64,000 bases of DNA, taken from NCBI GenBank assembly GCA_964016885.1, contig OZ024742.1, positions 134,168,001-134,232,000 of the forward strand, in the 5' to 3' direction. Made by a program: the position numbers and the translations under genes. This DNA is from Eledone cirrhosa. Lineage: Eukaryota. Position 1 is the stretch's first letter; each line of letters starts with the position of its first letter. Shown here one piece after another: positions 1,103-60,835 of this stretch. The notes below the pieces were generated by a model, which was given only the letters and a program-made list of their open reading frames with translations, did no database searches and was not told where the DNA came from.

Positions 1103-3611
1103 TCTGGTCATTTTTGCGTGTATATTCTGCCGTCACCGTAGTGACAGGATTTTACTAATTATATTTAAAGGTGTATTATTGCAGCTAATTTATAATAAAT
1201 ACTCAAACAGATTTATGCTACTATAATTGACTATATTTTGGCAGTCACATGAATCAATTACATTTATAATTCTTTTTATTAATTTCATTTTTTACAAATA
1301 AAATAAAACGGAAATATTTCAAATTCTGTATATGTGAAATGTGTAATTGTTAACATTAGAAAATGAAAAGAACGAAGTGAAATAAATCAAGACTTAGAGT
1401 AAAAAAACATGAGATGCGAAACAATACATTTGAAAGTATTTGAGATTGAAATTAATGGGTTGATGTGAAGAGTGTTATTGTATACCTGAGTGGGAAGATA
1501 TGAATGTAGAATCGAAGTGAAAGAGGGGTATAATAAGTGTGTAAACATTTTGTGGGCGAAGAAGAATAATGTATAGCTTTCACGTATAGTGAATGCAATA
1601 TCTACTACAATATAAACAATAAACTTACTGAAAAACGGGGGAAAACGTAATACAAAAGGGCGTAATTAACTCATAACTAAACTAAAGTTAATGTGGAGGA
1701 TTACAGTCAAAATATTTACGCGAGAAAAACAGTTTTTATTTGTTATATTCTTATAGTTGATATTTTGTTTAGGTGAGACGATTTCTGTAAAGAACAAATC
1801 TCAGTTGTGGCCTGTGTTGAATTATTTTATCTCACCATACCATCGTATTTTTAGGATACGATAAATGTCAGACTCATACAGTTTATAGATTATATCCCTA
1901 GTATGACATCTTTACCGGAATGATATAATACTGAAAGAAATGAACGTCATAGCTGTAGTTTGCATGTGGCGTTGCATTAGAAGCCAGAAATGGTCACAAA
2001 GCAAGATAGAGTAACATTAAATCTAAGTAAACCCTGTTTGATATTTCCCTATGCTTTTTGTGGAAGGCACTATGAAACCATAAAAACAACAGAAGAACAA
2101 TGAAAGGAACACACATGAAAAATACAGTAAACCTTTAAATATGCTCATCCATACCTACTGGCTCAAATATTGGGTCTGTAAATAGTGTTTGACACGTAAG
2201 AACCAACATTAGACAACCTGCTTTACCTCTTTTGTTTATCAATATCAGTTGAAGTATATGAAGGTAGGAAAGGCAGCTGGACGTTACAGTAGATTTGCCG
2301 AGATGCTCGAAACATTCGACATAATAGCGTACATGTTAGACAAGCGTATAATCTTACAGTGTTGTAAAAACCAATGACTAGCGCAGCAGTAACTTTAAAA
2401 AAAACTGCGAAGTCAAAATGGACGCACTAGAGGAGTGTATCTACAGATACATCAAGTGTATGAGCAGGTTGTAAATGTTACTGAAATGATTATTATATTA
2501 TATTCGGTCCCGTAATTCCCGATGAAGTCGTAGTGGGAACGTATTGACATACGCTTTTTCTAGGGCATCCTTTCCAGTTGATTTGAATTCAGAAATTAGA
2601 GAACCGAAACGAATGCGAAAACATAATTTTATCCGACTTTCTGACAATTCTGCAAATATGCAGCCCGAAAGGATTAATAGAACACGTAATTGGGGAGTAT
2701 TAAGTTCGATTAGACATTGTTCCTCTTTATGCCATGACGGTTTCCAAGTACTGTACACTTTTCTGACTGACAAATGCAGGAGACCCGCTTAACATAGAAT
2801 GAGCTAATATCTGCATGTCTGAAGATGAACGTTGGATGATGTCCTCTACTCTGCAATCTAGCACAGCAATATTAGACCTGTGATGCATATAAAAATGATA
2901 AAAGCAACCAATAAACTCGGAAAATTGGATGATAATAGTAAGGGCATACAGCCCCCCCAAAAAACGTACTCAATGAAAGACGCATTGCCAGATGTACCTA
3001 CTGTTCTTTTCACGAAAAATTGTTACGGATGCTCAATGAATAGTTTGGGAAAGTAAATAAGATATGGCCTGCGGTTCATCTCATATAACTATATAATGAA
3101 GTACAAACATCGGGTAATACGCACCATCCTAAATTGGCTAACAGGGAAAAGTGAAATTAAATGATGATTATTTATTATCTTGTTCCTCCTTATTTCACAC
3201 TAACACTGGAATAGATTTAAAATATTCTGTTTCCATCAGACAAACAGTTAATGGTTTCTACTTTTAAATTCTATCATTAATTTATCGTCATTTTTTGAAA
3301 GAAGGTTACAGCGTAATAATTTGTCGTACTATACTTCAAATCTTATATACGTTTACATATCTTATATGAGATTATGTTACTTTAAATTGCTTTCAATGTT
3401 GGCGTCTGTAAAAGTAAATTGCAAAGATATAAACAACAGTTAATTATGTGAGATCGCTGTTCCTGGACGAATTTTCAACACCTGAATATACATTACAAAT
3501 ATTTCTTTAAAAATTCTGCCATTAGCAGCAGTTTTAACACATATATAAATATATATATAAAAATAACAGATTTAAATCACTTCGGATTTTAGTCTTCACA
3601 TTTATTATTAT

Positions 3612-3832
<221 letters not shown>

Positions 3833-4330
3833 AGCGAGAAAAAAAAAATGTTTTCTCGCTCACATCTCACCCATGTCGGATGGTCTGAATCTATCGTCCA
3901 TGAATTCACCAAGCTTAAGCTTACAGATTTCATGTACTTGTCTCTTCATATCTTTCCGTTGCAATACGATCGTTGTTTGTTTACATGTCTCGCTCATTTC
4001 ACCCTATTTTACTTGTCCCAATAAGTTTATTTAGTTATTGCTCGCACCAACTAGAGGTATATGATTTTTAAAGCGAGGAAATACCAATGAAAGTTGGAAG
4101 ATCACTGATGAAGGACTAATTTTATTCATATGTAACCCATGTGCAACCAGGCAGCTCTCCATTTTTCTCATATATATATATATATGTATATATTAGAAAG
4201 TGAGGTTTTTTTTACAAAATGAAAAATAACCGAGGTGTCCTACACGAGTGAAAGTATAAAGAAAAAGAGATGAAATCGAAAATGTAACTGGAGTCTTATT
4301 TTTTTTAAAAATATATATCTTTATTTGGTT

Positions 4331-4368
4331 CCTTTACCGGTTTCGCAGTTCTTCTGCTTTTCAAAAGG
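4331..4368 (-). ncRNA. Minimal type I hammerhead ribozyme with U3-A8 variant core
   Basis: Minus strand: cctt-TTGAAAA-gcag-aagaa-ctgc-GAAA-ccg-GTA-aagg; all stems pair; stem III is the palindrome ACCGGT. Confidence 0.8.
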
Positions 4369-5213
4369 TGAGTTGAGATGGAGGGTCTGTGGTTTTTCTC
4401 ACATCTGGTTGGTCTCTGAATGTTACTTGTTTTATATGGAAAAAGTGGCTCGAAATGCCAGGTTTTTCGAGAAGTAATTTGATTGGTTTGTCAATAATTA
4501 TAATAAATTTCGCGCCAGTTCGCGTTACAATAGTTCTTCAAATAAGAGGGGGGAGGGCTTGTTACAGGTTGTTTTTTCATATATGAGTGTTTGAATTTCT
4601 TTTTACTTGAAAAAAGGAGGCTCACGAAGGCTTTTTTTTGGTTGGTTATAAATGAAATTATGGCTGTCACGTGAACAAATTTTCATTAAATTTTTGTGCC
4701 CTTATTTGGAAATCCATTCTCTAGCCTTTTTATAGAATTTTTTGATAAAAAGATAATGGTCAAGAGAAAGGGATGTGAGAATTGTTCTGGTTCAGTGAAT
4801 ATGGTTAGTTCGCTGGGGTGTCAGAATTCAGATTTTCTATTGAATAAAGATAGTAAAGATATGTGTGTTTATTTGTGTGCTTGTGTGTGTATGTGCGTGT
4901 GTGTGTGTGTTTGAATTTCTTTACTTTAGAGAAAGGTGGCTCAAGAAGGATTTTTTTTAATAAACGTGATTTGATTGGTTATAAATGAAATTTGGCTCTC
5001 ACGTGAACAAGTTTTCATTACATTTTTGCGCCCTTATTTTGAAAACTATTCTGTAGTCTTTATAGCGAATGTTATGACAATGGAAAGATAGTGGTCAAGA
5101 GAAAAGGGATTGTTCTGGTTCAGTTAATATGGTTAGTTCGCTGGCGTGTCAGAGTTCAGATTTTCTATTGAAGTGAAGATATGTATGTTTATTTGTGTGC
5201 TTGTGTGTGTGTA

Positions 5214-5246
<33 letters not shown>

Positions 5247-5659
5247 GTATTGGAAGATGATTCTATTAGTAGAAATGGGGGAGGGAGTTGTGTGTGTGTG
5301 TATATATATGTGTGTAGGAAAGTGGTTCTATTAGTAGAAATGGGGAGGGAGTTGTGGGTGTGGGGGTTGTTATGTGTGTGTATGGGTGTTATGTGTGTGG
5401 GAGTATAGTTAGCATGTTAAGATGAAGAGAATATATATATATATATATTGTATGTGTGTGTATGTGTGTGTGTAGGAAAGTGATTCCTTTAGTAGGAATA
5501 TTTTTTAATGAACATATTTTCCTTACTTATTCGTGTTTGCAGTTGTATTGTCAGTGCAAACGTATGTTAAGGTTTATTTAGTTCGGGTTTTTATTTTCTA
5601 AAGTAGAAGGTGTTATGTGTGTGTGTGTATGTCATATTATGGTGTTGACATAATGTATA

Positions 5660-6951
5660 TTAAACCTTATTTAATGTTGGTCTATATTTTTGAATAAACA
5701 TATTTTCCTTATTTATTCGCATTTGTTCTGTTGTATTGTTAGCGCAAAGGTAAAATGGGAAGACTTGGAATTTGGGTGTCTTATTACTTGCGCAAATGTT
5801 TAGATGTGCACTTAGTGGTATCTGTCTTGTGGTTGGATCTCGTAATTGTTGGCGATGAACTGTCATTCTGTTTCCGAGTGTGAGTTTAGTTTGTCCTATA
5901 TAATCTTCATTGCATCCTTTACATTTAATGGCATAAAGTAGATTTTTTGATGGGCAAGTGAAGTGATTTTTTACAGTAAAATTTTGTCCTGATTTAAATG
6001 TATACGTGTTGCCTTCAATGAGGTGAGTGCAGGTTCCACAATTAGAGCGACCACATTTTTTGATACTTGGTTGTGGGTTTGTGGTAGGTAATTTGGCATT
6101 GGTGAGTAATGTTTTCAGTGATTTTGGTTGTCTTTTGCTTTTGATTATTTTGTGTGTTTCAAGGGCTTTTTTCATTCTTGGGTTTTGTGAATAGTGTTGT
6201 AAGCTTCCGCATTTTTTGGGTTGTGTGTTGAGATATATGATAGAATATTGGACGTACCTTGAATTTGTTTCTGTTTCCGTAATTCATCAATGCCTATTGC
6301 TTTAGCCATTTCTATTTCATTATTTATTAGTAATAGTGGGTACTCTCTCTCGAGTAGAATTTCCTTTAATTCTTGAAGTCTTTTATTTCGCGTTTCATAA
6401 TTGGAGACAATTGTGCAAATTCTTCTTGCTAGGTTAAAAGGAATGTTCGTCTTCGTGTGCTTTGGATGGTTGGAGGTGAATAGCAGATATTGTTTGGAAT
6501 CTGTTGGTTTGTAGTGTATGTCAGTTTCGATATTTGTGTCTTTTTTTAAGATTAAGATGTCCAGAAATGGGAGTTGATCTTGGCTGTATTCCATTGTGAA
6601 TTGGATGTGGTTATTGATGCCGTTTATTAAGTTTTTGAAATCCTTCCGTTGGCCTAGTGTGTGGGACCAAAGAATGAGGCAATCATCCAAGTAGCGTTTC
6701 CTATTCCCTGATAAATATTTGTGGAAGTTCAATCCGTATTTTGATTTGGAATGTTCATATATCTGGACTTCTAAGTATGCCATGACTAAGTTGGCATAAG
6801 TTGGAGCGGCTTTTGTACCCATCGCAGTCCCCGATATTTGCTTGTAAGTATTGCCATCGAAATCAAAAAAGTTGTTTTGTAAGATACATTTTAATCCCTC
6901 GGTGATGTAGCTTTTTTCTATTCTGTCAGGTATCTCATTGGGATATTTCTC
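5660..6951 (-). pseudogene. PLE RT (C-terminal part), linker and GIY-YIG endonuclease, frameshifted near 6175
   Basis: [64 protein letters not shown]. Confidence 0.92.
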
Positions 6952-6991
6952 TATATATACATATATATACATATAAATATATGTATATATG

Positions 6992-14459: not shown

Positions 14460-16290
14460 AAAATGATTTAAATCGAAAATGCAACTGGTGTCTTATTTTT
14501 TTTAAATATATATATTTATTTGGTTCCTTTATCGATTTCGAAGTTCTTCTGCTTTTCAAAAGTAGAGTTGAGATGGAGAGTCTGTGGTTTTTCTGACATC
14601 TGGTTGGTCTTTGAATGTTACTTGTGGAATGTTACTTATGGAAAAAAGTGGCTCGAAACGCCAGGTTTTAAGAGAAGTAATTTGATTGGTTGGTCAATAA
14701 GTATAATAAATTTCGCGCCAGTTCGCGTTACAAAGTTCTTCAAACAAGATGGGGGGCGGGGCTCAGGTTGTTTTTTAATATATGAGTGAAGTTTGGTTGG
14801 TTGATGCAGTCACGTGAATAAGCACATCAGCTTTCGCGCCAGCTTGTTTGAATTTATTTTTACTTAAAACAAACCTTAAATTAAGACGAATTGTAGCGGG
14901 CCCACAATGTGAAACACACAGAATGAGCAACTTTATAGCCATACTACTAAAACCAATTCTCAAACACATACCAAGCCTTGTAACAGACGATCTGGACCTC
15001 TTAAACCACATCCCCAAACATGTCAACACCGAAACTATTATTGTGTCTTTCGATGTAGTGAATCTTACACAACGATCCCACACCAATAGGGACCAGAAGC
15101 AATATGATTCTGGCTAGAGAAATATCCCAATGAGATACCTGGCAGAATAGAAAAAAGCTTGATCACCGAGGGATTAAAATGTATCTTACAGAACAACTTT
15201 TTTGATTTCGATGGCAGTACTTACAAGCAAATATCGGGGCCTGCGATTGGTACAAAAGCTGCTCCAGCTTATGCCAACTTAGTCATGGCATACTTAGAAG
15301 TCCAGATATATGAACAGTCCAAATCAAAATACGGATTGAACTTCCATAAATATTTATCAGAGAACTGCAAACGCTACTTAGATGATTGTTTCATTCGTTG
15401 GTCCCACACACTCGACCAACTGAATGATTTCAAAAATTTAATTAACAGCATCAATAGCCACATCCAATTCACAATGGGATACAGCCAAGATCAACTCCCA
15501 TTTCTGGACATCTTATTCTTAAAAAAATACATAAATATTGAAACTGACATACACTACAACCAACAGATTCCAAACAATACCTGCTATTCACCTCCAACCA
15601 TCTAAACACACGAAGACGAACATTCCTTTTAACCTAGCAAGAAGAATTTGCACAATTGTCTCCAATTATGAAACGCGAAATAATAGACTTCAAGAATTAA
15701 AGGAAATTCTACTCGAAAGACAGTACCCACCATTAATAATAAATAATGGAATAGAAAGGGCTAAAGCAAAATGCATTGATGAATTACGAAAACAGAAACA
15801 AATTCAAGGGACGTCCAATATTCTATCATATATCTCAACACACAACCCAAGAAATGCGGAAGATTAAAACACTATTCACAAGAACATCCCACTATTGAAA
15901 CAAGACCCAATAATGAAAAAAGCCCTTGACACACAAAATAATCAAAAGCAAAGGACAACCGAAATCACTGAAAACATTACTCACCAATGCCAAATTACCT
16001 ACCACAAACCCACAACCAACTGACAAAAAAGGTGGTCGCTCTAATTGTGGAACCTGCACTCACCTCATTGAAGGCAATACGTATACATTTCAATCAGGAC
16101 AAAATTTTGCTGTAAAAAATCACTTCACTTGCTCATCAAAAAATCTATTTCATGCCATTTAATTTATAGGATTCAATGAAGATTATATAGGAAAAAACTA
16201 AACTCACACTCAGAAATAGAATGGCAGTTCATCGCCAACAATTAATTACGAGACCCAACCACAAGACAGATACCACTAAGTGCACATCTA
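14460..16290 (+). mobile_element. Nep-A copy 2: inverted terminal arm (14460-14870) and disrupted RT/GIY-YIG (about 14872-16290)
   Basis: LRRIVAG, FDVVNL, GPAIGTKAAPAYANL, RYLDDC, NCGTC; high similarity to 5660-6951. Confidence 0.9.
14527..14562 (-). ncRNA. U3-A8 minimal hammerhead ribozyme, Nep-A copy 2
   Basis: ctt-TTGAAAA-gcag-aagaa-cttc-GAAA-tcg-ATA-aag; stem III is still palindromic (ATCGAT). Confidence 0.65.
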
Positions 16291-27263: not shown

Positions 27264-27751
27264 AGAAATAAAACCTTTTTGTACAGCCGACCATGTTATT
27301 TTTCAATCTTTCACTACACTCACACACACACACGCACACACATATAGATATATAAATATATTTATATATATAAAGGTTTACATATATATATACATACATA
27401 GATACATATACGTGTTTCGCAACGGGTCATTTTGTGGCTCAATGAAAAGTTAATAAATTAAATAATCAGAGCTATATATCATAAAACATGTCTATAGAAT
27501 CACCAGATAGCATATATACCAGTTCCTCTCCCAATTAGCGTAAGTAGCCATATAAAAAATCGAATAGACCAGTCTATAAGAATAAGGCTTCTATGAAGAA
27601 ATCTCCAACAAATAACCGAAACTAGCCCTTCCCGTCGGCTGCGACGGAATAGTTATCGAATATTTCGACAGCGTAATCGCCCAGATATACAGTCAATTAA
27701 ACAGAATTAGATGTAGAATAAACTAGGAGAAAAGAGAATACATTTATTTAC

Positions 27752-27824
27752 TTCGACCATGGTTTCGTCCGCATTTTGAGATTTCCAATAACTTCGGAAA
27801 CTCGAGCACCGGACTCTTCAGGAG
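27752..27824 (-). ncRNA. Type I hammerhead ribozyme with intact core
   Basis: ctc-CTGAAGA-gtccg...cggac-GAAA-ccatg-GTC-gaa; stem III palindrome ACCATGGT. Confidence 0.78.
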
Positions 27825-28505
27825 TTTGCTCAAATCTAGACAATAAATTTTCCAAAGTGATCCCGCCAAGAATACATTCAAAAATGGCTAAGAATCGTGA
27901 CGTAGCAGCGGTCAGGTTGGAAAGAGTGTGGTTAGTTGCTTACGGATGGTGGCTTTTTGCTAGAAAGCACAGCACAATACAGCCAAATGTATATGTTAAA
28001 CTAACGGGAGATTATTACATATAAAGGTTTACACCTATATATATATATATATATATACATATATACATACACGTGATTTGCAACCTGTCACTTTGTGGCT
28101 CAAGGTAAAGTTAATAAATTAAATAATCAGAACTATATATCATAAAACATGTCTATAGAATCACCAGATAAAATATATACCATTTCCTCTCCCAATTAGC
28201 ATAATTAACCATATAAAAAATCGAATAGAGCAGGCTATAAGAATAAGGCTTATGAAGAAATATGCAACAAATAACCGAAACTAGCCCTTCGCGTCGGCTG
28301 CGACGGAATATTTAATAATCTCCCGTTAGGTTGAGATACAAATTTGGCTGTATTCTGGTGTGCTTTCTAGCAAAAAGCCACCAGCCGTAAGCAACTAACC
28401 ACACTCTTTCCAACCTGACCGCTGCTACGTCACTATTCTTAGCCTTTTTTTAATGTATTCTTGGCGCGATCACTTTGGAAAATTTATTGTCTAGATTTGA
28501 GCAAA

Positions 28506-28578
28506 CTCCTGAAAAGTCCGGTGCTCGAGTTTCTGAAGTTATTAGAAATCTCAAAATGTGGACGAAACCATGGTCGAG
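28506..28578 (+). ncRNA. Type I hammerhead ribozyme, mirror copy with G8>A
   Basis: ctc-CTGAAAA-gtcc...ggac-GAAA-ccatg-GTC-gag. Confidence 0.7.
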
Positions 28579-28846
28579 GTAAATAAATGTATTCTCTTTT
28601 CTCGTAGTTTATTTTACACCTAATTCTGTTTAATTGACTGTATCTGGGCGATTATGCTGTCGAAATATTTGATAAATATTCTGTCGCAGCCGACGCGAAG
28701 GGCTAGTTTCGGTTATTTGTTGGAGATTTCTTCATAGAAGCCTTATTCTTATAGTCTGGTCTGTTCGATTTTTGATATGGTTAATTATCCTAATTGGGAG
28801 AGGTAATGGTATATATTGTATCTGGTGATTCTATAGACTTGTTTTA

Positions 28847-40828: not shown

Positions 40829-41430
40829 GAAAATTAGAGTTAAAACTCAATTGGAACCCTGTAACTATTAGGCTCAAAGTATAAATACTGAGCCGATTAA
40901 TAATATATAGTAAGAAACACAGTAAACCGTGTGTCTAAAATTACAAGGGTTGAAAAACCACATTTGTTTGAAATATTTAACCAAGGAGCAGACAGAATGA
41001 TAGAATATACAAACCGCCTCAATAACCATTATATCTCTCGGACAGATTATCCTTAATCTGTTTCGCCCTGAGTGTGTTTGTAACAGATAATCCTGGGCTT
41101 CATCAGCGAGAGAATCTGATTAAATGCCACAAACACTATTTGCCAACGTTCACACAGAAAGATGAATTTGTCACCTCGTGCGCCGCTAGTCAAACGTGGT
41201 AAGCGTGTATCGAATAGAAATAACAGTCCAACACACACAACGTGTTTCTTACTATATATTATTAATCGGCTCAGTGTTTATACTTTGAGCGTAATAGTTA
41301 CAGGGTTCCAATTTTCATATATATTTCTGCTCACTCACAAGTTGAGCTTATTAAGTTGTGTGTGTTGGACTCTTATTTCCATTCGATACACGCTTACCAC
41401 GTAAATATATACGGACAAAATGAAACGAAA
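40745..41430. mobile_element. Multi-inverted-repeat ORF-less element with a central HHR
   Basis: 40830-40920 vs 41240-41320 and 41193-41240 vs 41356-41402 are inverted pairs. Confidence 0.75.
41035..41112 (-). ncRNA. Intact type I hammerhead ribozyme, predicted able to fold as a monomer
   Basis: ctctcg-CTGATGA-a-gccc-[26 nt]-gggc-GAAA-cagatta-agga-taatct-GTC-cgagag; 6-bp stem I, 4-bp stem II, 8-bp stem III. Confidence 0.9.
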
Positions 41431-43405: not shown

Positions 43406-44545
43406 CTACTCCCCCGGGTCATTATGGGGTTTGAGGGCGAGGTAAGTCCTACGCAATCTATGTTTACATGCAGTAACCAGTTCATCGTTCTTGTTTAGGA
43501 GTTGGTCCGTCGAAAACAACATTTGTAAAGTTTCCTCCGAGCATAAATTGCACGGACGGCGTCTTCCCATGTAAGAATTGGCTCTGGACAGTAATCTCCA
43601 AGTGAGATCATAGGTGATGTTGTTGTCCTTGAGGTCCCATATGTGGCCCGAAAGTGTAGTGGCGTGACGCCGGGCCGGGTTTCGGAAGGTATGTCTATGT
43701 TGGTATAGCCGGGTCTTGAAGTCACATGCGGTAAGTCCTATATAGGCTTTGTTGGAGGTATCCGTCCTCACGTTGTACTGGTAGATCACATTACGGTCTC
43801 TGCATCTATTGTCGAGTGGGCAAATGGATCTATCCGGACAGTTACACCTCCTGGTCGGTTCTCCACTGCTATTTAGGTTATTTCTGCCATCGGGGTTGAG
43901 TTTTTTGTTGTTAGAGGAGACGATGTTTTGTGCGAAGTTTGGTGTAATGCTGTAAGAGAGTTTGATGGTATTTTTGTTAATTATGTTGTGGTAGCGGTGT
44001 TGTAATGGGAAGTGTTTTTCAATGAGCCTAAAGAATAGTTTCCCGATGGGAGTTGTCACCTCTGCGTTGTGGGGAGGATTGAACCATGTTACATTGCGTG
44101 AGCGGCGGTGTCTCCTGCTGGTTCCGCTAATGGGAGCTGGACAGTAGGATATTTCCTCCCGGAAACCACTCCGCTTGAGGGCCTGGTTGTAATAAGGCGC
44201 ATGTTCATCGAATATCCGCTCATTAGCTGACAAACGGGATATGCGGAGGGAGATGTTTTTGACCAGGTTGTTTGTGATGTTCCTAGGATGGTTTGATCGG
44301 CGGTGGATGTAGTGCAGATTGTCATTAGGTTTCCTGTATGGGTAGTACAGGTCGTTTTCGAGGTCGAGGGTCACGTCCAGGAAGTTTACTCGGGTCAGGG
44401 ACGTTTGTAGGGTTATTTTAAATCCCCAGTCGCGGAAGAATCTGATTAATTGTTTCCGGACCCGATCTGTACTACTGGGGTTGTACCCTTTAAGGGTAAG
44501 CAGCCCATCATCACGGTACAATCCAGCACCGAATGCAGGAAACAT
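43406..44545 (-). CDS. Naiad-type PLE polyprotein, 5'-truncated: RT C-terminal half, CCHH-type linker, GIY-YIG endonuclease
   Basis: 379-aa uninterrupted ORF: GLYRDDGL, VNFLDVTLDL, PYRKPN, SNHP, WFNPP, CNC..CPLD..C, VIYQ..AYIGLT..FKTRLYQH, CNLC. Confidence 0.9.
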   Translation of the reverse strand: MFPAFGAGLYRDDGLLTLKGYNPSSTDRVRKQLIRFFRDWGFKITLQTSLTRVNFLDVTLDLENDLYYPYRKPNDNLHYIHRRSNHPRNITNNLVKNISLRISRLSANERIFDEHAPYYNQALKRSGFREEISYCPAPISGTSRRHRRSRNVTWFNPPHNAEVTTPIGKLFFRLIEKHFPLQHRYHNIINKNTIKLSYSITPNFAQNIVSSNNKKLNPDGRNNLNSSGEPTRRCNCPDRSICPLDNRCRDRNVIYQYNVRTDTSNKAYIGLTACDFKTRLYQHRHTFRNPARRHATTLSGHIWDLKDNNITYDLTWRLLSRANSYMGRRRPCNLCSEETLQMLFSTDQLLNKNDELVTACKHRLRRTYLALKPHNDPGE

Positions 44546-44888
44546 ATCAGTGAGTTTGGCTATTAGGACCCTAGGTCGTAGAACTTGCTTTACTTTTTTT
44601 TTTCTTTACACTTATTCGCTTTTCTTCACTCTCAGTATTTTTTCTTTCATATATATTTTTACCCCCCATTGTTCTACCTACTGTTCCGACTTCCTCCCCC
44701 TCCCCCTCCCCAGTATCTTCTTTGACCTCATGCCCAGCTGTAGCTGGCACTACCAACGCTTGATTGGGTCTACTCCACCCCCTCCCCTCTTTCTCCTACT
44801 GGCAGGTTTAGCCACCATCTCCCCTACTAATTTGCAATCACAGAATTACTACTGATTTTTGACAATCACTTTGACCATTTATGGAATT

Positions 44889-45021: not shown

Positions 45022-48000
45022 AACAGCAATAACAACAACAGCCAGAAAACCAGGAGCAAGCACTACTGAATTCAAGCATATTAGCTGAATTACTGAATGA
45101 CAGTATCACCCAGCCACTCACTCAGCCATCAATATCGCCATCACCATCATCATCGCCACTATCTTCTGCTACATCAACATCTTCTGCCACATCAACTGCT
45201 AGTAATGGACCACTGTTCTCTCACCCACCACAGTTGTCATTATCATCATCACACCTAATGGTTTCTTCCCCCACATCACCACCACAGGCATGCCATAGTC
45301 AAAAGAACTTTAACAAAAAAAGATCTATGGAGCTGTATGCCCCCCCCCCCCACTACACATAGTAGAAATACCCAAAATATGCCGCTACTCAGTACGTCAG
45401 AGGCTATACACGCGTACCAACTGTATATTTACCCATTTACCGGGTACTAGGCGCACTAACATTACCAGTCAACACCAAAGCACGCTGCCCACACGTATAG
45501 GTCGCAGTCCCAAAATCTGCCAACATTCCGTACGTGAGAGGCTATTTTTGCTGACTGACTGTCCCTTCACTCATCTTCCTGGGGCACAACGCACGAAGAG
45601 AAAAGGGGCTTCATGCCAACCCACAAACCACAATAAAGCCACTCCCTGTTGCGGTAATGATGCTCCTCTCTCCTCGCAAAGACATGATTATAACAACAAA
45701 AACAACAAAAGTAATGCTGCTCCAGTCTTTTCACAAAGACACGATCACAACAACAACAAATACAACAACAACAAAAATAACGCTGATCCAGTCTTTTCAC
45801 AAATACACAATTACAAATACAACAACAACAACAAAATATGGAACTGCAAACCCTATCCAATGTTGTAACCATAAATCCAATCAAAAACTGCTCCCTGAAC
45901 AAAAAAAAAAATATTTCTTTTTTAGCCATGAACCTGGCAAAAGAGGTAGAGAAAAACATTTTAGCCATCACCCAACACCATCCTTGCTGTCACTAACACA
46001 CAATCACAAAACAAGCCCCCTGTAACAGTCAAAACCAGCCACCACTCTGGCCTCCACATTCTTACTCAATGCACAGAAATGGGAGATCCAATTCATTGAG
46101 GATTGGGTTGGTAACCATCCATTTCACATCCCCTTCTTCATTCTTACTGAGACCCAGATTGACAACTCCCACTTGGAGGCCGAAGTAAGAGTGAGAAATT
46201 TCACAACCATTCCTGTGGATCGTGTTTGCAGAAGGAAGGGCGGAACTGCTATGTTCGTGCATGATTCCTTTACGGTAGATGGCAACACAACATTCTCTAA
46301 TGGATACTGTGAATCAGTCACTGTGCATAATAAAGCCAAAGACCTGACATTAGTTGGGCTTTTTAGGCCACCACAAGCACCCATGATCTGCTTCAAAGAA
46401 TGCCTCAACAGTATTAAATGCTTTATTAAAAAGTGCCATTCTAGCAACATACTTCTGATGGGACACTTTAATCTACCTTGTGTCGATTGGTCTACATGTA
46501 GTTTGAAACCAGGCTCCACAGCCTCAACCACGGACAAAGAGGCTGTCGAGTCAATTCTTGACTTCATGAATGAGTGTTTCTTGTCCCAAATAGTCCTTGC
46601 ACCAACGAAGCATCAGAAGAACATTCTGGATCTAGTATTTAGTAACCGCACTAACACTATACATAATATTACAGTGGAAAAAACCCTTCTCTCAGACCAT
46701 GACATGGTTCTTTGTAACCTGAGATTCCACCAGCGGAAAGCTAATCACAGAGTCCTCTCTCCAGCCCACTAATTTGATAACATGGATCTCTACAATGCCA
46801 ACAGGGATGTAATTATGAACGAACTATCACATGTCGACTGGTCTTTTACACACGCACACCACATCAAAACATCTTGGCAGGTCTTTGTAGACACTGTCAC
46901 AAATATATCTACAAAACACACACCCCCCAAAACCTGTGAACAAAACCAAGTGCAGTATCCCCCAAATCAGAAAAGTAAGATCAAACAAAAGAAATTAACA
47001 CTCTAAAATACTGCCAACAGCAACACACCCATTCAATGGCTATCACCCTGCTTGAGTCAAAAAATTATAACCTACAGTAATGCATGATGACCATCATCAA
47101 TAACCAGAGAATAACTGAAGAGAGGTGGGCCATTGAGAAAATCAAGGTCAACCCCAAAGTGTTCTTTTCATTTGCTAAAAAAGCACAAGGTCACCGTCTC
47201 CACTGTTGGCTCCCTAGTTGATGAAAATGGCACACTCCAGGACAATGCCAAAACGATGGTCGAGATACTGCAAAAACAATACTGCTCTGTTTTCAGCATC
47301 CTGATATGGCCGATCTGGGCCGTATCAGTGATATTAACCCCCAACACACTATATCAGACATAACGTTTGGCGACCCTGATGTCGTAGCGGCAATAAACAA
47401 AATTAAACACAATTCAGCAGTAGGCCCTGACAAGTTCCCTGCTTGTGTCCTGAAGGTGTGTCGACACCAACTTGCAACTCCTCTTGCTAATCTGTGGAGG
47501 AACTAGCTGGACACTGGCTATATTCCTGAAAACTTTCTGTCCCAGTCCGTTGTCCCAGTCTTCAAAAAGGGAAATAAGTCCCTTGCAGTGAACTACCGTC
47601 CGATCTCACTCACCTCTCATATTATCAAGGTATTTGATTCGGTGGTGAGATCACGAATAACCCACTTTCTTGAAAGCAACGGCCTGCTAAACTCCAACCA
47701 ACATGGGTTCTGTAATGGAAGGGACTGCCTAACGCAGCTCCTGCATCACTTTGGCGATGTTTTGAGAGCCTTGGGAGAGGGCTCCGACACTGATGTCATC
47801 TACCTTGATTTCAGCAAGGCCTTCGACAGAGTTCATCATAAGATTCTACTGAATAAACTATCCAATGTTGGTGTATCTGGAAGGTTACTACAGTGGATCA
47901 AATATTTCCTGACAGGCAGAACCCAGCATGTTGGAGTCGAAGGAGTAAAATCAAGCCCTGCCAAAGCCAGCAGTGGCGTCACACAAGGCAATGTGTTGGG

Positions 48001-49040
48001 CCCACTTCTTTTCATCATCTACATTAATGACATAACTGACATCATCAAGCACAGCGATATCAGAATCTTCACAGATGATTCCAAGGTACAAAGGGTCATC
48101 AATGAGGTGGGTGACCGGACTTGCCTTCAGTCAGACCTCCTGGCTGTTATCTAATGGGCAGAAATGAGTAATATACTGCTGAATGAGGATAAATTTGAAC
48201 TAATCCAATTTGGAAGAAAGGATGCCTGAAACTACCATACTCTCTTCCTTCAGGTGAAATTCTAGTGGCTTCCAATAACATCAGAGACCTGGCGGTAATT
48301 GTGGGCAACAATATAAGCTGGGCCACTCATATAAACAGCGAAATTGATATGGCCCGCAGAATGTGTTCCTGGATTCTCAGAACTTTCCAGTCGAGAAATA
48401 TCCACACTGTTATTCTTCTCTTCTCCACTTTTGCCCGACCCCACCTTGAATACTGCTGTCCACTGTGGTCACCCCACACGAAACAAAGTATCATGAAAGT
48501 TGAAGCACCCCAAATGTCAATTACAAAAAAAGATAGATGGCATGACAGGCCTTGACTATTGGAGTCGATTAGAAAAGCTCAAACTTTATTCTCTTCAACG
48601 TCGCCGTGAGCGCTACATTATCTGTATGATGTAGAAAATATTCCATCAGCTCTTCCCAAATGATGCTATCATCAACTTTAGAGTACATCCAAGGCTTGGG
48701 CTCCGTGCTATCCGCCCACGACAAAAATCTCGTTTGCATCACATAAAAACAATACGGCACAATTATTTCACCTCAATTGGCCCTGCACTCTTTAACATTA
48801 CACCAAAACACATCAAAGCCGAGACAGATCCCATCAAGTTCGAGAAGTCTTTGGATAAATTCCTACAAGAAATGCCGGATAAGCCTCCCACTCTTGGATA
48901 TGCCGCTGTAAACAATAACTCTCTGCTCGAGTGGGCCATGGTGCCCAAACACTAATTTGTAAGATTTCGGCTGTTGGTGCTATCAAGTTAGACATGGCCT
49001 GGGCCAATACTGGCCGAAACCTATCAAAGTTGTTAAAGTT
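45022..49040 (+). mobile_element. CR1-group LINE, decayed: ORF1 remnant and APE-RT ORF2 (about 46050-48955)
   Basis: GGTAMFV, MGHFNLP, NILDLVF, SDH, NYRPISLTS, YLDFSKAFDRV, SGVTQGNVLGPLLF, FTDDSK, RPHLEYCCPLWSPH. Confidence 0.92.
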
Positions 49041-50556: not shown

Positions 50557-53500
50557 CCCTCTTCCTACTATATCAAGCGTTAACCTAATATATACGTTCC
50601 ATATCCAATTGTGTTGTTATTTCTGTTTACATTTTACATACACATATATATATATCAACGCTTACATGGACCTCTCAAAATTCGTTGGCTTTCCTGATTG
50701 GATCTCGAAACTGGATACCAACCCGGAGTACACCTGAACTTCCACCAGGAAATCTTTCGTATCTTTGAAATTTTCTTTGCTTCTTGCATTTAAATATTCC
50801 ACGACTCTCTACCACTTTTCCTCTACTACATTTTCTCAGCCGTTTATTTTTCACTCCCAACCTAGTACCTTCAATATGCCCAATCTCAAATCCTTTCTCC
50901 GCCAGCTCCATTCTACTCTCAAGCGCTTCCTCCAACCTCTCCCCCCTAACATATATGCATCTAAACCTCCCTGCATCTCTCCAACCTAATCTTTACCAAA
51001 ACACGATACAACAGTCACATCAGATTTTTAAGTCGCTGTCTCCAACACCATCTCATTCGCACCGGTGTCCGCCTCAAGTGTCACGCCAGCTCTTACTCTG
51101 CTGCCACCACTGAGCCCATCCTGACCCACTCCTCTAGCCAGCTCATGCGGGCGACCATTCGATCAACTCCCGCACAAATCCGTTCTCTCGACCGGGATCT
51201 CCCCAAGGCCTACATCCATCTCTCCTCCACTTACCACCCTTTCCTCGCCCAATCCCTTATACAATTCATCCTTTACCTCAATCGCCTCCTTCTCAATTTC
51301 CTCACATCCGCAAAAAAACATAAACTCGACTCTGTCCGCTCCTTGCCTGCCGTCACCACCCATACTCATATCACTTCCAACCCTAACCCCTCTATCCCGT
51401 CACCTACCACTGTATCTGCACACGCTTTGCACAACCACCTTGACACCTCGCCTCCGCCACTTTCACTCCCTCACGCACCTGCACTGTAGTTACCTTACCC
51501 CAGGACCTACCACTCTCCGAAGCTGAACGCTCCCTCCTCGCCCGTGCATTTCGTTTTATACCAACCACATCTACCTGCAACGAGTTCCGCACTTGTGCCA
51601 AGATTGAAGGGTTCTTCCGTTGTTTAAAGCTGAAAGCTTTTTTTCACGACACGCCATCATCAACACAGACGGATGACTTCACTCGTCTCAGTTGCCGGCA
51701 ATCACATTGGACGCCGAGCTCTGGCCAGTTCAGCACCCACGACTCTTTTGTCAATACTTGCCGGAGTACCGTGAATCGGTTCCGTTTCCACAAGCATTCT
51801 CGTCGCTCTAACATCACGCGAACTTAGCTCTCCGCTCTTCGCAGCCTTCGGTGTTGTGATGACATTGTCACAAACCCGCTGACAAAGGTGGCGCTGTGGT
51901 GGTTTGGAGTGCTGACCTCTATAGGGCTGAGGCTCTCCGCCAGCTTCACAATAACCTTTTTTTACCACCCTTTATCATCCAACCCCACTCCTTGGTACCA
52001 ACAACTCCTGTCCTCCACCAACCACGAGCCCATCTCCACCTCTCACCTAACCCCCACACCCACCAACATTATTGTATGCACACCTCGCACACCACCCATC
52101 TACTTCCTCCCCAAAATACACAAAATAATCCGGGCCGTCCTATCGTTTATGCGTGCAACTGCCCCACCGAGATAATTTCTGAATATTTAGACACCATCCT
52201 CGCTCGTTGGTCGCCTATCTCCCCTCCAACATCCACGATACACATCATGCCCTTAGACTTTTCTATTCTTTCTCCTTCCCGCCTGGTCCCTCCCGCCTAC
52301 TCTTTATCTTGGACATGACTTTTCTCTATACCGTCAACCCTAATGATGACGGCTACCGCGCACTCCAGCATTTTTTAGATGTACGCCCTACCCCTTACCC
52401 CAGCACTACCACTCTTCTCCTTCTGGCTGAGCTTCTTCTCACCCTTAATGGATTTTCTTTTTCGCGTGAATTTTACTATCAGGTCTCTCGGGTAACGATG
52501 GGAATCAGAATGGGTCCAATCAATGCCAACTCGCTTGTTGGCTACGTCGAAGCCCAGGTCTTCTCCCAGTACGCTGGACCAACTGCCTAGCTATACGTTC
52601 GTTATATCGACGACTGTATCGGCGCCACCTCTCTATCACGAGAACAGCTCGACTGTTTTCTTTCTTTTGTCAAATCTTTCCATCCTGCTCTCAATTTCAC
52701 TGCCTCGGTCTTCGATTCTGCTGCCGCTTTTCTAGATATCTCTCCATCTATTAATCATTATTACCCCACCGTCTCTACTTCCATCTACACTGAAACCAAC
52801 AAAATCCCAATCTTATCTCGACTTCACCTCCTGCCATCCAACCCACACCAAACACTCCATAGCATATTCCCAGTTCCTCCGTCTTCGTCAACTCTGTAGC
52901 CAGGACGACGATTTCGAAACCCATTCCGTTCGCATGGCTTCCTGCTTCATCCAGCGTGGATATCCCCCCCACATCCATCCAAGCTGATCTCACCCGCGCC
53001 CGTGAAACATACCCCACCACAGCCTCCTCACCTCAATCCCGCCCTTCCAATAACTGTGTTCCTTTCCCTCTTCCCTACCACCCCAGCACTCTACCACTGC
53101 GGCGACATATCCTCCGTTCCTTCCATATCCTCTCTTCTGACCCCGTCACTTCTCGCTTTTTTCCAAAGCCACCCATTATGGCTTTTAAGCGCGCCCGATA
53201 CCTCGACGACCTCCTGGTTCGCATTTCTTCTTCGTCCACTCCCACCACTCCACCTGGGTATCCTTATACATCATCGATCACAGGCCTCGCACACTGGGAC
53301 TGAACAAAGTCTGATTCATCGTCTTGGGTCCTATTCCCCTCTTAGACTAAACTCACCTCCCCAATTCTCTAATACCCCGTCCATTATCACACCCCTAGAT
53401 TCCTATCGCTTTTTCTTTGCTCATAGCTTCGTACCGACATGTACACACACTCTTTTACTCACATATACACACATATCTCTACTTAGCTTCGTACGGACCT

Positions 53501-57020: not shown

Positions 57021-57448
57021 CTATTCTCAGCTAAGTTCCCAGGCAATGCGCGGACACTAGGAACCCATATAAAAATAATAATTCAGTGGATGGAAAAAAG
57101 CTAGCGGGGACAAGATTCCAGGGTACTGAACAAATTCACTGCCTACTTGGTCAGTGGCAAATTCTAAAGAATCAATCACGTGACACTGAGGTTAATCAGT
57201 GATAGTGGAGTGAAATTTAGACAAGAGCCTAACTACTACCATGAACCATAGCAGTAAATTTCGGCAAGTTTTGCTCAACAAATAATTTGGAGATAAATAT
57301 AGAGAATTAGTATATCTACCAACATATGTATACAGATGTAAACCCATGCTAGCAAATATATATGTTATGTCTTAGTAACTTTGTGGTTCTATGCAGGGGG
57401 ATGCAGAACAATTATATGAAAGACGTAAAATAAGAACATTTTAAAATT

Positions 57449-57648
57449 ACAGACCCTCCATCTCAACTCTACTTTTGAAAAGCAGAAGAACTGCGAAACC
57501 GGTAAAGGAACCAAATAAATATATATATTTAAAAAAAAAATAAGACTCCAGTTGCATTTTCGATTTCATCTCTTTTCTTTATACTTTCACTCGTGTAGGA
57601 CACCTCGGTTATTTTTTCAATTTGTAAAAAAAACCTCACTTTCTAATA
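57449..57648 (+). mobile_element. Solo Nep-A terminus
   Basis: Reverse complement of about 4192-4390. Confidence 0.85.
57472..57507 (+). ncRNA. U3-A8 minimal hammerhead ribozyme (Nep-A)
   Basis: ctt-TTGAAAA-gcag-aagaa-ctgc-GAAA-ccg-GTA-aag. Confidence 0.78.
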
Positions 57649-58829
57649 TATATATATAATGCGATTGCCTGCATTATTAGATGTTGGGGTCTGTCTGTTT
57701 TTTTTGTCTATGTCTGTGTGTATGTGTGTGCATCGATATTTGTTATGCGTGTGTACGTGTGTGGCTCGTAAATCACTTGTAGCTAGTTTCATCTCTGAAG
57801 TAGTCATTGTTTCTTGTTAAAAATGTAACATATAAACATTATATTTTGTTCCCTCCTCGTATGTTAAGTGTCCTCTTGAACGTATGTTTCTTTATTATCA
57901 ACAGATTGTGCCATTGTTTATTGGTTAGGATAGAGAGTACCGTTCTTGTTTGTATTTTGTCGCAAATTGGAAAAGAAACGAACGAAATTGCAATAATTAT
58001 GATAGTTTCAATTAGATATGAATCTAGCATATTTAGTTGTGATGAACTATTTTTCACCCATGTTGATTCGATGTTCATGTACAGCTTCTAGACAGTGTTG
58101 TATATGTGACAATATTTGAACATATTCCGGCTGTCAGGAATAACATCTGCAGTTAATTCTCCCTATGTGTGGAGAGATAGTGTTTGAAATGTCACTTTGG
58201 CGGAAAATTCAAATTCGGGTTACCGTGAAATTTCGAAATTTAAAAAGCATTGAACTGGCAAAGGCAGAATGCATCTTATTGACTGTCAATTTTGATCAAT
58301 CAGCAGTGTGACTTACAGTATGAACATCCATAATGTACACAAATTTTCTGTATTTATGCATTGTTAGTGTGTATGCGTACGTCAATCTGTCATTATCACG
58401 ATGACTAAAATATAAACGTGATAATAATACATATGAACATACGTATATTATATACACTTGAGATATATGTGAGATTTTAGGAGAATCACATTTTAACAAT
58501 GGGGCATCAGTGTTTGTTTACTGCATACATACTGATCGTAAATGAAAATGTTTTCAAACCTACGTGAAATGTCTGTTACATATTTATTTCTCAAAAGAAA
58601 CTTAATGGTGAAAGGAGACGATCGCAAACAGTGAACAGCCTTAAAATGATTCGCATCTGCAGAGTGAACAACAAACACAGGTGTAGCTAACGTGGTTCAT
58701 TCGCTGACTATTCCCTACTGAAAACTTGGAAGAGAATGGCGACAACATGTACTATAATTAACATATATTTGCCGGAATACATGAAATCATTAGTAGGTTT
58801 CATCCGGGAATTGTGTGGTACTGGTAACA

Positions 58830-59219: not shown

Positions 59220-60835
59220 GAAGATACAGAAATAGAAACTACTTATGGTTTAATCCAATGTTTAACTCCTCTATTAAAACTAAGCTTCTTCTCAATTTCT
59301 TTAAATTAGTTGACAAACACTTACCTAAAATACATAAATATCATAACATCATTAATAGAAAAACTATCAAACTATCATACTCCACTGCTAACAACATAGA
59401 ATCGCACATTCTCAAAATTAACTACATAAGCATTCATAATCAAAGTAGCCCCCATACAAGTTCCATATCACCAAATACACAACACACACATATTACATCA
59501 TCGCAACAAAATACACGTTAAAGAAGACCACCACAATACACCAACCAACCTAATTCGCAGCCCATACAGAACAACCTACAAAATCATGTAGTAGAACCGG
59601 CGCATATGAAGGCATTTCTATGCAATTGTCACTTACCCGACAATTGCCCTCTACTAAACAAATGCCTTGAGAAAAAAACGTAGTATACTTGTGTCCAATC
59701 AACTCAGGTAGCTTGGTATGGTATTATATTGGTTCCACAGCTGATGTTTTCAAAAAACGGTGGTACGTGCACAGACATTCTATGATTAATAAGAACCAAT
59801 CAAATACAACAACTCTTGCCAATAATATATGGCAACTCAAAAATGCAGGCACTAAATACAAGATCAGCGGGAAAATACTGTCATCTGCTAAAGCCTATCA
59901 AACTGGTATGTCCCATTGTAGACTCTGTAATATGGAGCTCTTCCAATTTTTCTATTTTAGTAAAACCCTTCTTAACAGTAGTATTGAGCGAACTATATTT
60001 TGCCGGCATAAATCAGCAACGAAGTTCCTGAACTTTATTTCAACTTAACTCCATTTTCTTCTCCTTTTTCCTTTTTATATGTTTATACTTTTACCACTTA
60101 TTACGATATCAAATGATCACAAACATCATAATTACGTAGGAATAACCTAAAAAATTTGTATTAACAAAATTATTTTTATTTTTATTTTTATTTGTATTTA
60201 CATCATTTATTATCTTATATATATACATCTTTCACCATTTGTCTTTGTATATCTCCACTTCAACATATTTTGTCTGGATCATTTTATCTTATAATATAAT
60301 ATATCTCAAACTAGCTATTTTACATAGTAATGTATATTCGTCCATATGTTTATTTTATTTTCTCTCTTCATCATATCCTCATATTCATGATTAATTTATT
60401 TCCCCCTCTACTCCCTCATCCCCCTTAATCTTCCTCTATTTCTTTCTCATCTTCCTTATTTATCCTTCCTCTTTGCCTATGCTATATCCCCCCTTCTCTC
60501 CTTCTCTACAAATATCTTTATTATTATTAATATAAAATTTATTTTAATGATTGATTTCGTAACATTGCCGGTTATACATTTAACTATATCTTCGTTCCTT
60601 CTTTCATTCTTTCTCTCCCATTTCCATCTGTCTCCCTTCCTTTATTTTTTTATCATTAACAATATTATTGATGTAGTAATGTGAATTTTTAAGTTTACGG
60701 TTACGCATATATTTTATATTTCTTAATGATTTCTGATGAAATGATTAAACTTAAATTGAGTTAGACTGTCTCCAATATTTAGCAATTTATAGACAATTCT
60801 ATCAGGGAAAAATGTCAACCATGTTATTCTTAACT
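59220..60835 (+). mobile_element. Second Naiad-type PLE family (Nai-B), 5'-truncated, GIY-YIG half plus 3' region
   Basis: WFNP, KTIKLSYS, CNC..CPL..C, YYIGST..FKKRW..H, CRLC, CRHK. Confidence 0.85.
60726..60822 (+). ncRNA. Probable hammerhead ribozyme at the Nai-B 3' end
   Basis: atgattt-CTGATGA-aatgat...atcagg-GAAA-aat-GTC-aaccat; stems imperfect. Confidence 0.5.

Follow-up and report, generated by a model that had tools for sequence, protein, structure and literature searches.

A minimal hammerhead motif with a family-wide U3-A8 core in a Neptune-like Penelope element of Eledone cirrhosa

Background

Hammerhead motifs of Penelope elements were described by Cervera and De la Pena (2014; PMC4209133), among them those of Drosophila, rotifer, shrimp and mosquito elements, whose helix III is small, palindromic and apt for dimer formation, and those of the Cercyon elements of Schistosoma mansoni, which carry a U3-A8 core and were given a descriptor of their own (ca. 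1,300 matches). Minimal motifs are stated there to cleave weakly and in a dimer-dependent manner. For natural hammerheads, Perreault et al. (2011; PMC3088659) had reported that C3-G8 covaries to U3-A8 and that 3-8 covariants are active in vitro, although the variants are not linked to Penelope elements in the portions of that paper available to us. The core swap is therefore already published, in 2011 for natural hammerheads and in 2014 for Penelope elements; the motif described here adds another instance of it, and the novelty implied in an earlier note on this DNA does not hold. Nothing further on a U3-A8 core was found in the accessible parts of a 2026 retrozyme preprint and of PMC7151607, PMC6431247, PMC3846280 and PMC5718144.

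The motif analysed here lies in a 64-kb window (the whole stretch of DNA that was analysed) and shares with the Cercyon hammerheads the core covariation, the minimal type I fold and the site in a pseudo-LTR, as well as the occurrence mainly as single truncated copies and also as close inverted pairs. It differs from them in its 4-bp stem II, in having no additional nucleotide to separate position 9 from 10.1, in a 4-nt palindromic stem III insert, and in the great uniformity of its copies. Assignment to the Cercyon subtype was rejected: that subtype needs a helix II of 7-8 bp whose 5' end bears an unpaired base, while here stem II follows directly after A9. With the Drosophila, rotifer, shrimp and mosquito motifs it shares the small palindromic helix III and differs by its U3-A8 core together with A17. 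A third point of comparison is PAc, a Poseidon element of Anolis (PMC11167929), for which a tail with two 3' ends from internal initiation of reverse transcription, a protein-assisted hammerhead, and uncut RNA as the main substrate were described; the two 3' ends that define the tail, the AT-rich targets and, as it appears, the uncut main template are common to PAc and the present family.

The hammerhead motif in the window

Copy 1 (4331-4368, minus strand) is a minimal type I hammerhead with no part missing; it spans 38 nt, its parts can be read in order (Table 1), and the predicted cut lies between 4335 and 4334. Its core follows the pattern N3-U-G-A-N-N8-A, G-A-A-A and U-H with a Watson-Crick pair at 3-8, and in the isolated motif stems I and II (with G10.1-C11.1) reach pair probabilities of 0.76-0.81 and 0.94, respectively. 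The earlier note had reported TTGAAAA in place of CUGANGA in three copies, and this is what copies 1, 2 and 3 read. Its further statement that stems, GAAA, palindrome and NUH site are all in place needs two corrections: stem II of copy 2 is mismatched, and stem I of copies 2 and 3 has only 3 bp. Copy 2 is decayed, with stem II broken and a hammerhead shape not reached in folding. A broad descriptor yielded six motifs from the window, while the average over 20 shuffles was 0.05 per shuffled window; the motif is real and beyond chance.

Rfam gave no hammerhead match at E<=1 for positions 3900-4800, nor any at the gathering score for the window and three related loci (L138, L140, L149). The earlier note held that searches based on CUGANGA would overlook the motif. 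Rfam does miss it, but the U3-A8 core is not the sole cause, because at the gathering score Rfam also passes over motifs with C3-G8, both those of the window and those of the same three loci.

All three copies lie in insertions of one element family. The insertion that carries copy 1 is dead and 5'-truncated; its tail stops 147 nt past the cut site, in a TA repeat. The RT-EN gene fragment is on the same strand, with its stop at 5660 and the motif about 1.3 kb beyond, which places copy 1 in the ORF's sense orientation, as had been noted. Copy 2 belongs to a second insertion, in whose inverted 5' pseudo-LTR it sits, and copy 3 to a short copy of 210 nt. Other decayed retroelement frames on the plus strand of the window are an RT-bearing Penelope-like frame (50965-53300) and a GIY-YIG fragment (59671-60048). 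A further decayed frame (46026-48154, plus strand) we take to be a LINE-like endonuclease/RT; the labels of these three frames are based in part on motifs.

Table 1. Positions of the hammerhead motifs and of the elements that carry them (window coordinates, except for the rows of locus L105)
Feature	Position	Strand	Remarks
Copy 1, stem I, 5' strand	4368-4365	-	sequence read
Copy 1, core TTGAAAA	4364-4358	-	U3 at 4364, A8 at 4359
Copy 1, stem II	4357-4345	-	4 bp + 5-nt loop
Copy 1, GAAA	4344-4341	-
Copy 1, CCGG palindrome (stem III)	4340-4337	-
Copy 1, TA of GUA triplet	4336-4335	-	A17 at 4335
Copy 1, stem I, 3' strand	4334-4331	-	4-bp stem
Hammerhead copy 2	14526-14563	-	core 14559; stem II mismatch, TCGA loop, AUA triplet, 3-bp stem I
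Hammerhead copy 3	57471-57508	+	core 57475; 3-bp stem I
5'-truncated Neptune-like element copy	4186-6953	-	BLAST to natural full-length L105; RT-EN fragment, 3' region with internal duplication, hammerhead, tail
Broken RT + CX4CX2C linker + GIY-YIG (CCHH) gene fragment	5660-6953	-	premature stop 6172-6174
RT-EN fragment, same family	14869-16290	+	head-to-head with copy 2
Short family copy holding hammerhead copy 3	57443-57652	+	210 nt; ca. 62 nt before to 147 nt after cut site
Hydra-type Penelope element, gene	43406-44605	-	single ORF, CxCX5C linker
Hydra-type motif	42284	-
Hydra-type motif	44894	+
L105, cut site	after 2590
L105, ORF1	2759-3961		400 aa
L105, RT-EN	3871-6198
L105, next motif	7240

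Family-wide state of the core

A pattern with positions 3, 7 and 8 left free gave 12,643 exact matches in the genome and none when reversed. The core reads U3-A8 in 12,484 of these, C3-A8 in 49, U3-G8 in 22 and C3-G8 in none, with other letters in 88; since only exact matches were tallied, these counts are lower bounds. A17 is equally fixed (12,484 copies, against 94 with another base). The double change is thus fixed in the family, as the earlier note had supposed, and the genome-wide consensus is U3-A8 and not CTGANGA. Fixation over copies reflects the state of the master element and is not a sign of selection on each copy. Among the first 100 copies listed, stem I has 4 bp in 53 and 3 bp in 41. 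Loci with a long open RT-EN frame have the motif in 15 of 16 cases, and all of these have the 4-bp stem I. We considered the TCGA loop of copy 2 as the mark of a compensating subfamily and dropped it: in only eight genome copies are both outer bases of stem III changed, and four of these are palindromic.

The element and its two reading frames

The endonuclease region has 24,096 candidates in the genome; the 150 that were scored are 96-100% identical to the query, many of them in open frames of 775 aa. Judged by sequence, the family is a young, intact, Neptune-like Penelope element of about 4.7 kb. Head-to-tail units of 4,679-4,712 nt (L103, L105, L109) have the motif at each end, located in the pseudo-LTR and in sense with the ORF. 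The cut site of L105 lies 168 nt upstream of the start of ORF1 and about 1.05 kb downstream of the RT-EN stop, whereas PAc (PMC11167929) has a C3-G8 core, a single ORF and its cut site within that ORF.

Craig et al. (2021; PMC8557442 and bioRxiv) define Neptune by a CX2-5CxxC linker and CCHH, both of which occur in the 775-aa translation; Pfam recognizes GIY-YIG above the cut-off and RVT_1 below it (E 4.9e-6). In common with the Neptune clade as presented there are the RT, the linker, a C-terminal GIY-YIG with CCHH, the pseudo-LTRs, the inverted 5' copies and the tail. Canonical EN+ elements are, however, described as having a single ORF (PMC8557442), while here a 400-aa ORF1 lies upstream and overlaps RT-EN in the -1 frame with a slippery heptamer. 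The assignment to Neptune made in the earlier note is accordingly kept for its linker, CCHH and GIY-YIG motifs and softened to 'Neptune-like', because of the extra ORF1 and because the placement was made by motifs and not by a tree with named Neptune or Nematis references; the 120 homologues listed include no named reference protein.

An in-frame U UUU UUR heptamer occurs in the -1 overlap of ORF1 and RT-EN in all seven elements checked (L105, L137, L138, L139, L145, L146, L217), which would likely make this an EN+ Penelope-like lineage with programmed -1 frameshifting. In 7 of 16 loci of the same genome the frame of ORF1 is intact from the start on, and the ORF1 products of L105 and L138 are homologous (29%, E 2e-37). 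ORF1 of this family has no Pfam match, those of three relatives have only sub-threshold ones, and no convincing pseudoknot was found downstream of the L105 slippery site. In the literature, to the extent of the text available, we found no account of an overlapping ORF1 and -1 slippery site for Neptune; the legend to Fig. 1 of Craig et al. (2021) does, however, name a frameshift-separated ORF1, so that the layout may already have been described. If it is undescribed, the conserved ORF1 frameshift signal may interest transposon specialists more than the hammerhead does.

Relatives and the 3-8 pair

Related loci were taken from metagenome and genome contigs (the best 80 of 409 confirmed, plus six loci); these most likely represent animal DNA within those assemblies. 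Some records labelled bacterial contain Penelope-like genes (L217-L222; P0012, P0037, P0041, P0056), and these are probably host DNA. Before counting we dropped two matches within the gene (L140:55, L221:1545) and alternative starts of one motif (L145:3039, L146:808), and the twin motif of L138 was counted once. A motif near the gene was then present in 11 of 23 close loci, ten with C3-G8 and one (L222) with U3-A8, all being Watson-Crick at 3-8; the C3-G8 relatives hold the core pair in the same frame as the U3-A8 family. The 11 motifs comprise seven different 4-nt palindromes, in a scan that required a palindrome. With this filter lifted, five loci had motifs outside the gene, all palindromic, and one non-palindromic match lay within the L138 gene. 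A U-U apposition at 10.1-11.1 ahead of stem II was seen in the related motifs of L141, L145, L218 and L220.

A tree of 12 rows joins L222 to the C3-G8 locus L220 (100/100), and the AU test rejects a grouping of the two U3-A8 rows as one clade (p-AU 0.00016); two distant loci, L153 and L193, also have U3-A8. As close relatives carry C3-G8 and the U3-A8 rows do not group, the swap is compensatory, as had been claimed, and recurrent, and does not represent decay: on the loci compared, the 3-8 pair has switched several times while Watson-Crick pairing was kept. The C-to-T and G-to-A changes also seem to follow the direction of AT drift.

Insertion ends

We mapped the ends of 100 U3-A8 copies, the first ones listed on contig C1, with inverted pairs counting twice. 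Their 3' ends lie at +147 from the cut site in 48 and at +79 in 33, and we infer from the parallel with PAc that these are the tail signature of internal initiation of reverse transcription. Their 5' ends lie between -61 and -73 in 59, of which 41 fall within -69 to -73; none lies between -74 and -91. The hard edge at about -73, equivalent to L105:2518-2530, would be a run-off at a transcript start within the pseudo-LTR, where the start of Penelope also lies. Contigs from four public runs, which carry no information on RNA ends, show loose ends in TA repeats at the +79 and +147 places and further ones near -70. A G before -72 was considered as a cap signature and dropped, as the inverted arms bear a templated -73 base.

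The 59 copies with ends from -61 to -73 cross the cut site and have it intact. Because such copies dominate, uncut RNA appears to be the main template, as it is for PAc in vitro, and it is likely that uncleaved RNA dominates transposition. No sharp peak of insertions beginning at the cut site was found among 277 matches over six positions (reversed control 87). The tally by hand for the first 100 listed rows was 21 at -2, 16 at -1, 24 at +1, 15 at +2, 12 at +3 and 12 at +4, figures that are blurred by TA microhomology, include a few internal mutations and come from a pattern that misses some junctions. A run-on into ORF1 was found in none of 12 loci examined that start near the cut site. There may be a small cleaved fraction, and cleaved RNA may simply integrate poorly.

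Folding and predicted activity

Two copies co-fold to a double-hammerhead topology at -22.5 versus 2 x -7.5 kcal/mol, a gain of 7.5 kcal/mol over separate monomers, and the pairs of stem III reach probabilities of 0.92-1.0; the palindromic stem III region thus permits a dimer. In both the isolated monomer and the dimer, U3 pairs with A17 with a probability of about 0.6, and the dimer is 1.4 kcal/mol less stable without this pair. The stems are weaker when wider sequence context is included, and stem I then forms poorly (0.06 and 0.24). A G17-C3 pair was proposed as the trap behind the inactivity of G17 variants in minimal hammerheads (PMC3884650), and the folding models predict that pairing of U3 with A17 at the cleavage site mimics this inactive C3-G17 state. 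The other U3-A8 motifs, of a Hydra-type family in the window and of L153, L193 and L222, have C17 or U17 in all four. Self-cleavage activity is probably low, a prediction drawn from the U3-A17 mispair and from the origin of most copies in RNA uncut at the site.

The reading that we favour, and hold to be quite probable, is that of a minimal hammerhead in the pseudo-LTR of a young Neptune-like element, with U3-A8 family-wide, whose self-cleavage would be weak and would depend on the pairing of two copies by their palindromic stem III or on help from the element's protein. Transcripts would start about 73 nt ahead of the cut site, reverse transcription would begin internally at +79 or +147, and copying mostly of uncut RNA would yield the many copies of 150-220 nt; cleavage would be a minor or regulatory step, damped further by U3-A17 pairing. 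The motif might instead be a catalytically dead or near-dead relic, whose master element gained U3, A8 and A17, covered its cut site by U3-A17 as C3-G17 does, and spread without cleavage. This agrees with the fixed A17, the U3-A17 pair in the lowest-energy folds, the proposed G17-C3 trap, the other pyrimidine-17 motifs and the 59 copies that cross an intact site, and hammerhead mutants of PAc still insert in vitro (PMC11167929). We nevertheless regard it as rather unlikely, for the remaining core positions and the stems are all intact, nearly all loci with a long open RT-EN frame retain the motif with its 4-bp stem I, and the 3-8 pair has stayed Watson-Crick over repeated origins; moreover, G17 variants of tertiary-stabilised hammerheads remain active (PMC3884650), and apparent junctions in the tally are most frequent at +1, which might reflect a small fraction of cleaved RNA.

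That the fold persists chiefly for its role as a structural signal, for protein binding, RNA dimerisation or the placing of priming at +79 and +147, with catalysis incidental, seems to us improbable. The 3' ends do cluster just downstream of the motif, the folds are most stable at stem II and at the palindrome, and Cervera and De la Pena (PMC4209133) leave non-cleavage roles open. But the catalytically active fold includes the 3-8 pair (PMC3884650), whose repeated compensation therefore fits selection on catalysis better. A further reading is put forward only tentatively: a self-damped hammerhead, in which U3-A8 permits the active fold and U3-A17 traps it off, may let most transcripts escape cutting, to be copied from a constant start 73 nt upstream. 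The lineage, Neptune-like and with two ORFs, would express its RT-endonuclease by a conserved -1 ribosomal frameshift. With the core swap itself known, the value of the family is that of a clean test case. Its thousands of near-identical copies are a genomic readout on the cutting of Penelope RNA before insertion, which points to mostly uncut RNA, and the combination of U3 and A17 yields a simple prediction on ribozyme tuning.

Other hammerheads in the window

In the Hydra-type Penelope element (Table 1) the type I motif is larger, with stem I of 5 bp, a stable stem III of 6 bp, a GUC triplet and U3-A8, and it may work as a monomer. It has 2,208 matches in the genome, and the first 100 listed all read TTGAGAA (U3-A8). 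The type I hammerhead at 41106 (minus strand) of the window is canonical, with C3-G8, 7 bp in stem I and a long stem III. An inverted repeat (27687-28022 and 28308-28643) contains a hammerhead with a 6-nt palindrome, of which one arm has C3-G8 and the other C3-A8, a case of decay at a single site.
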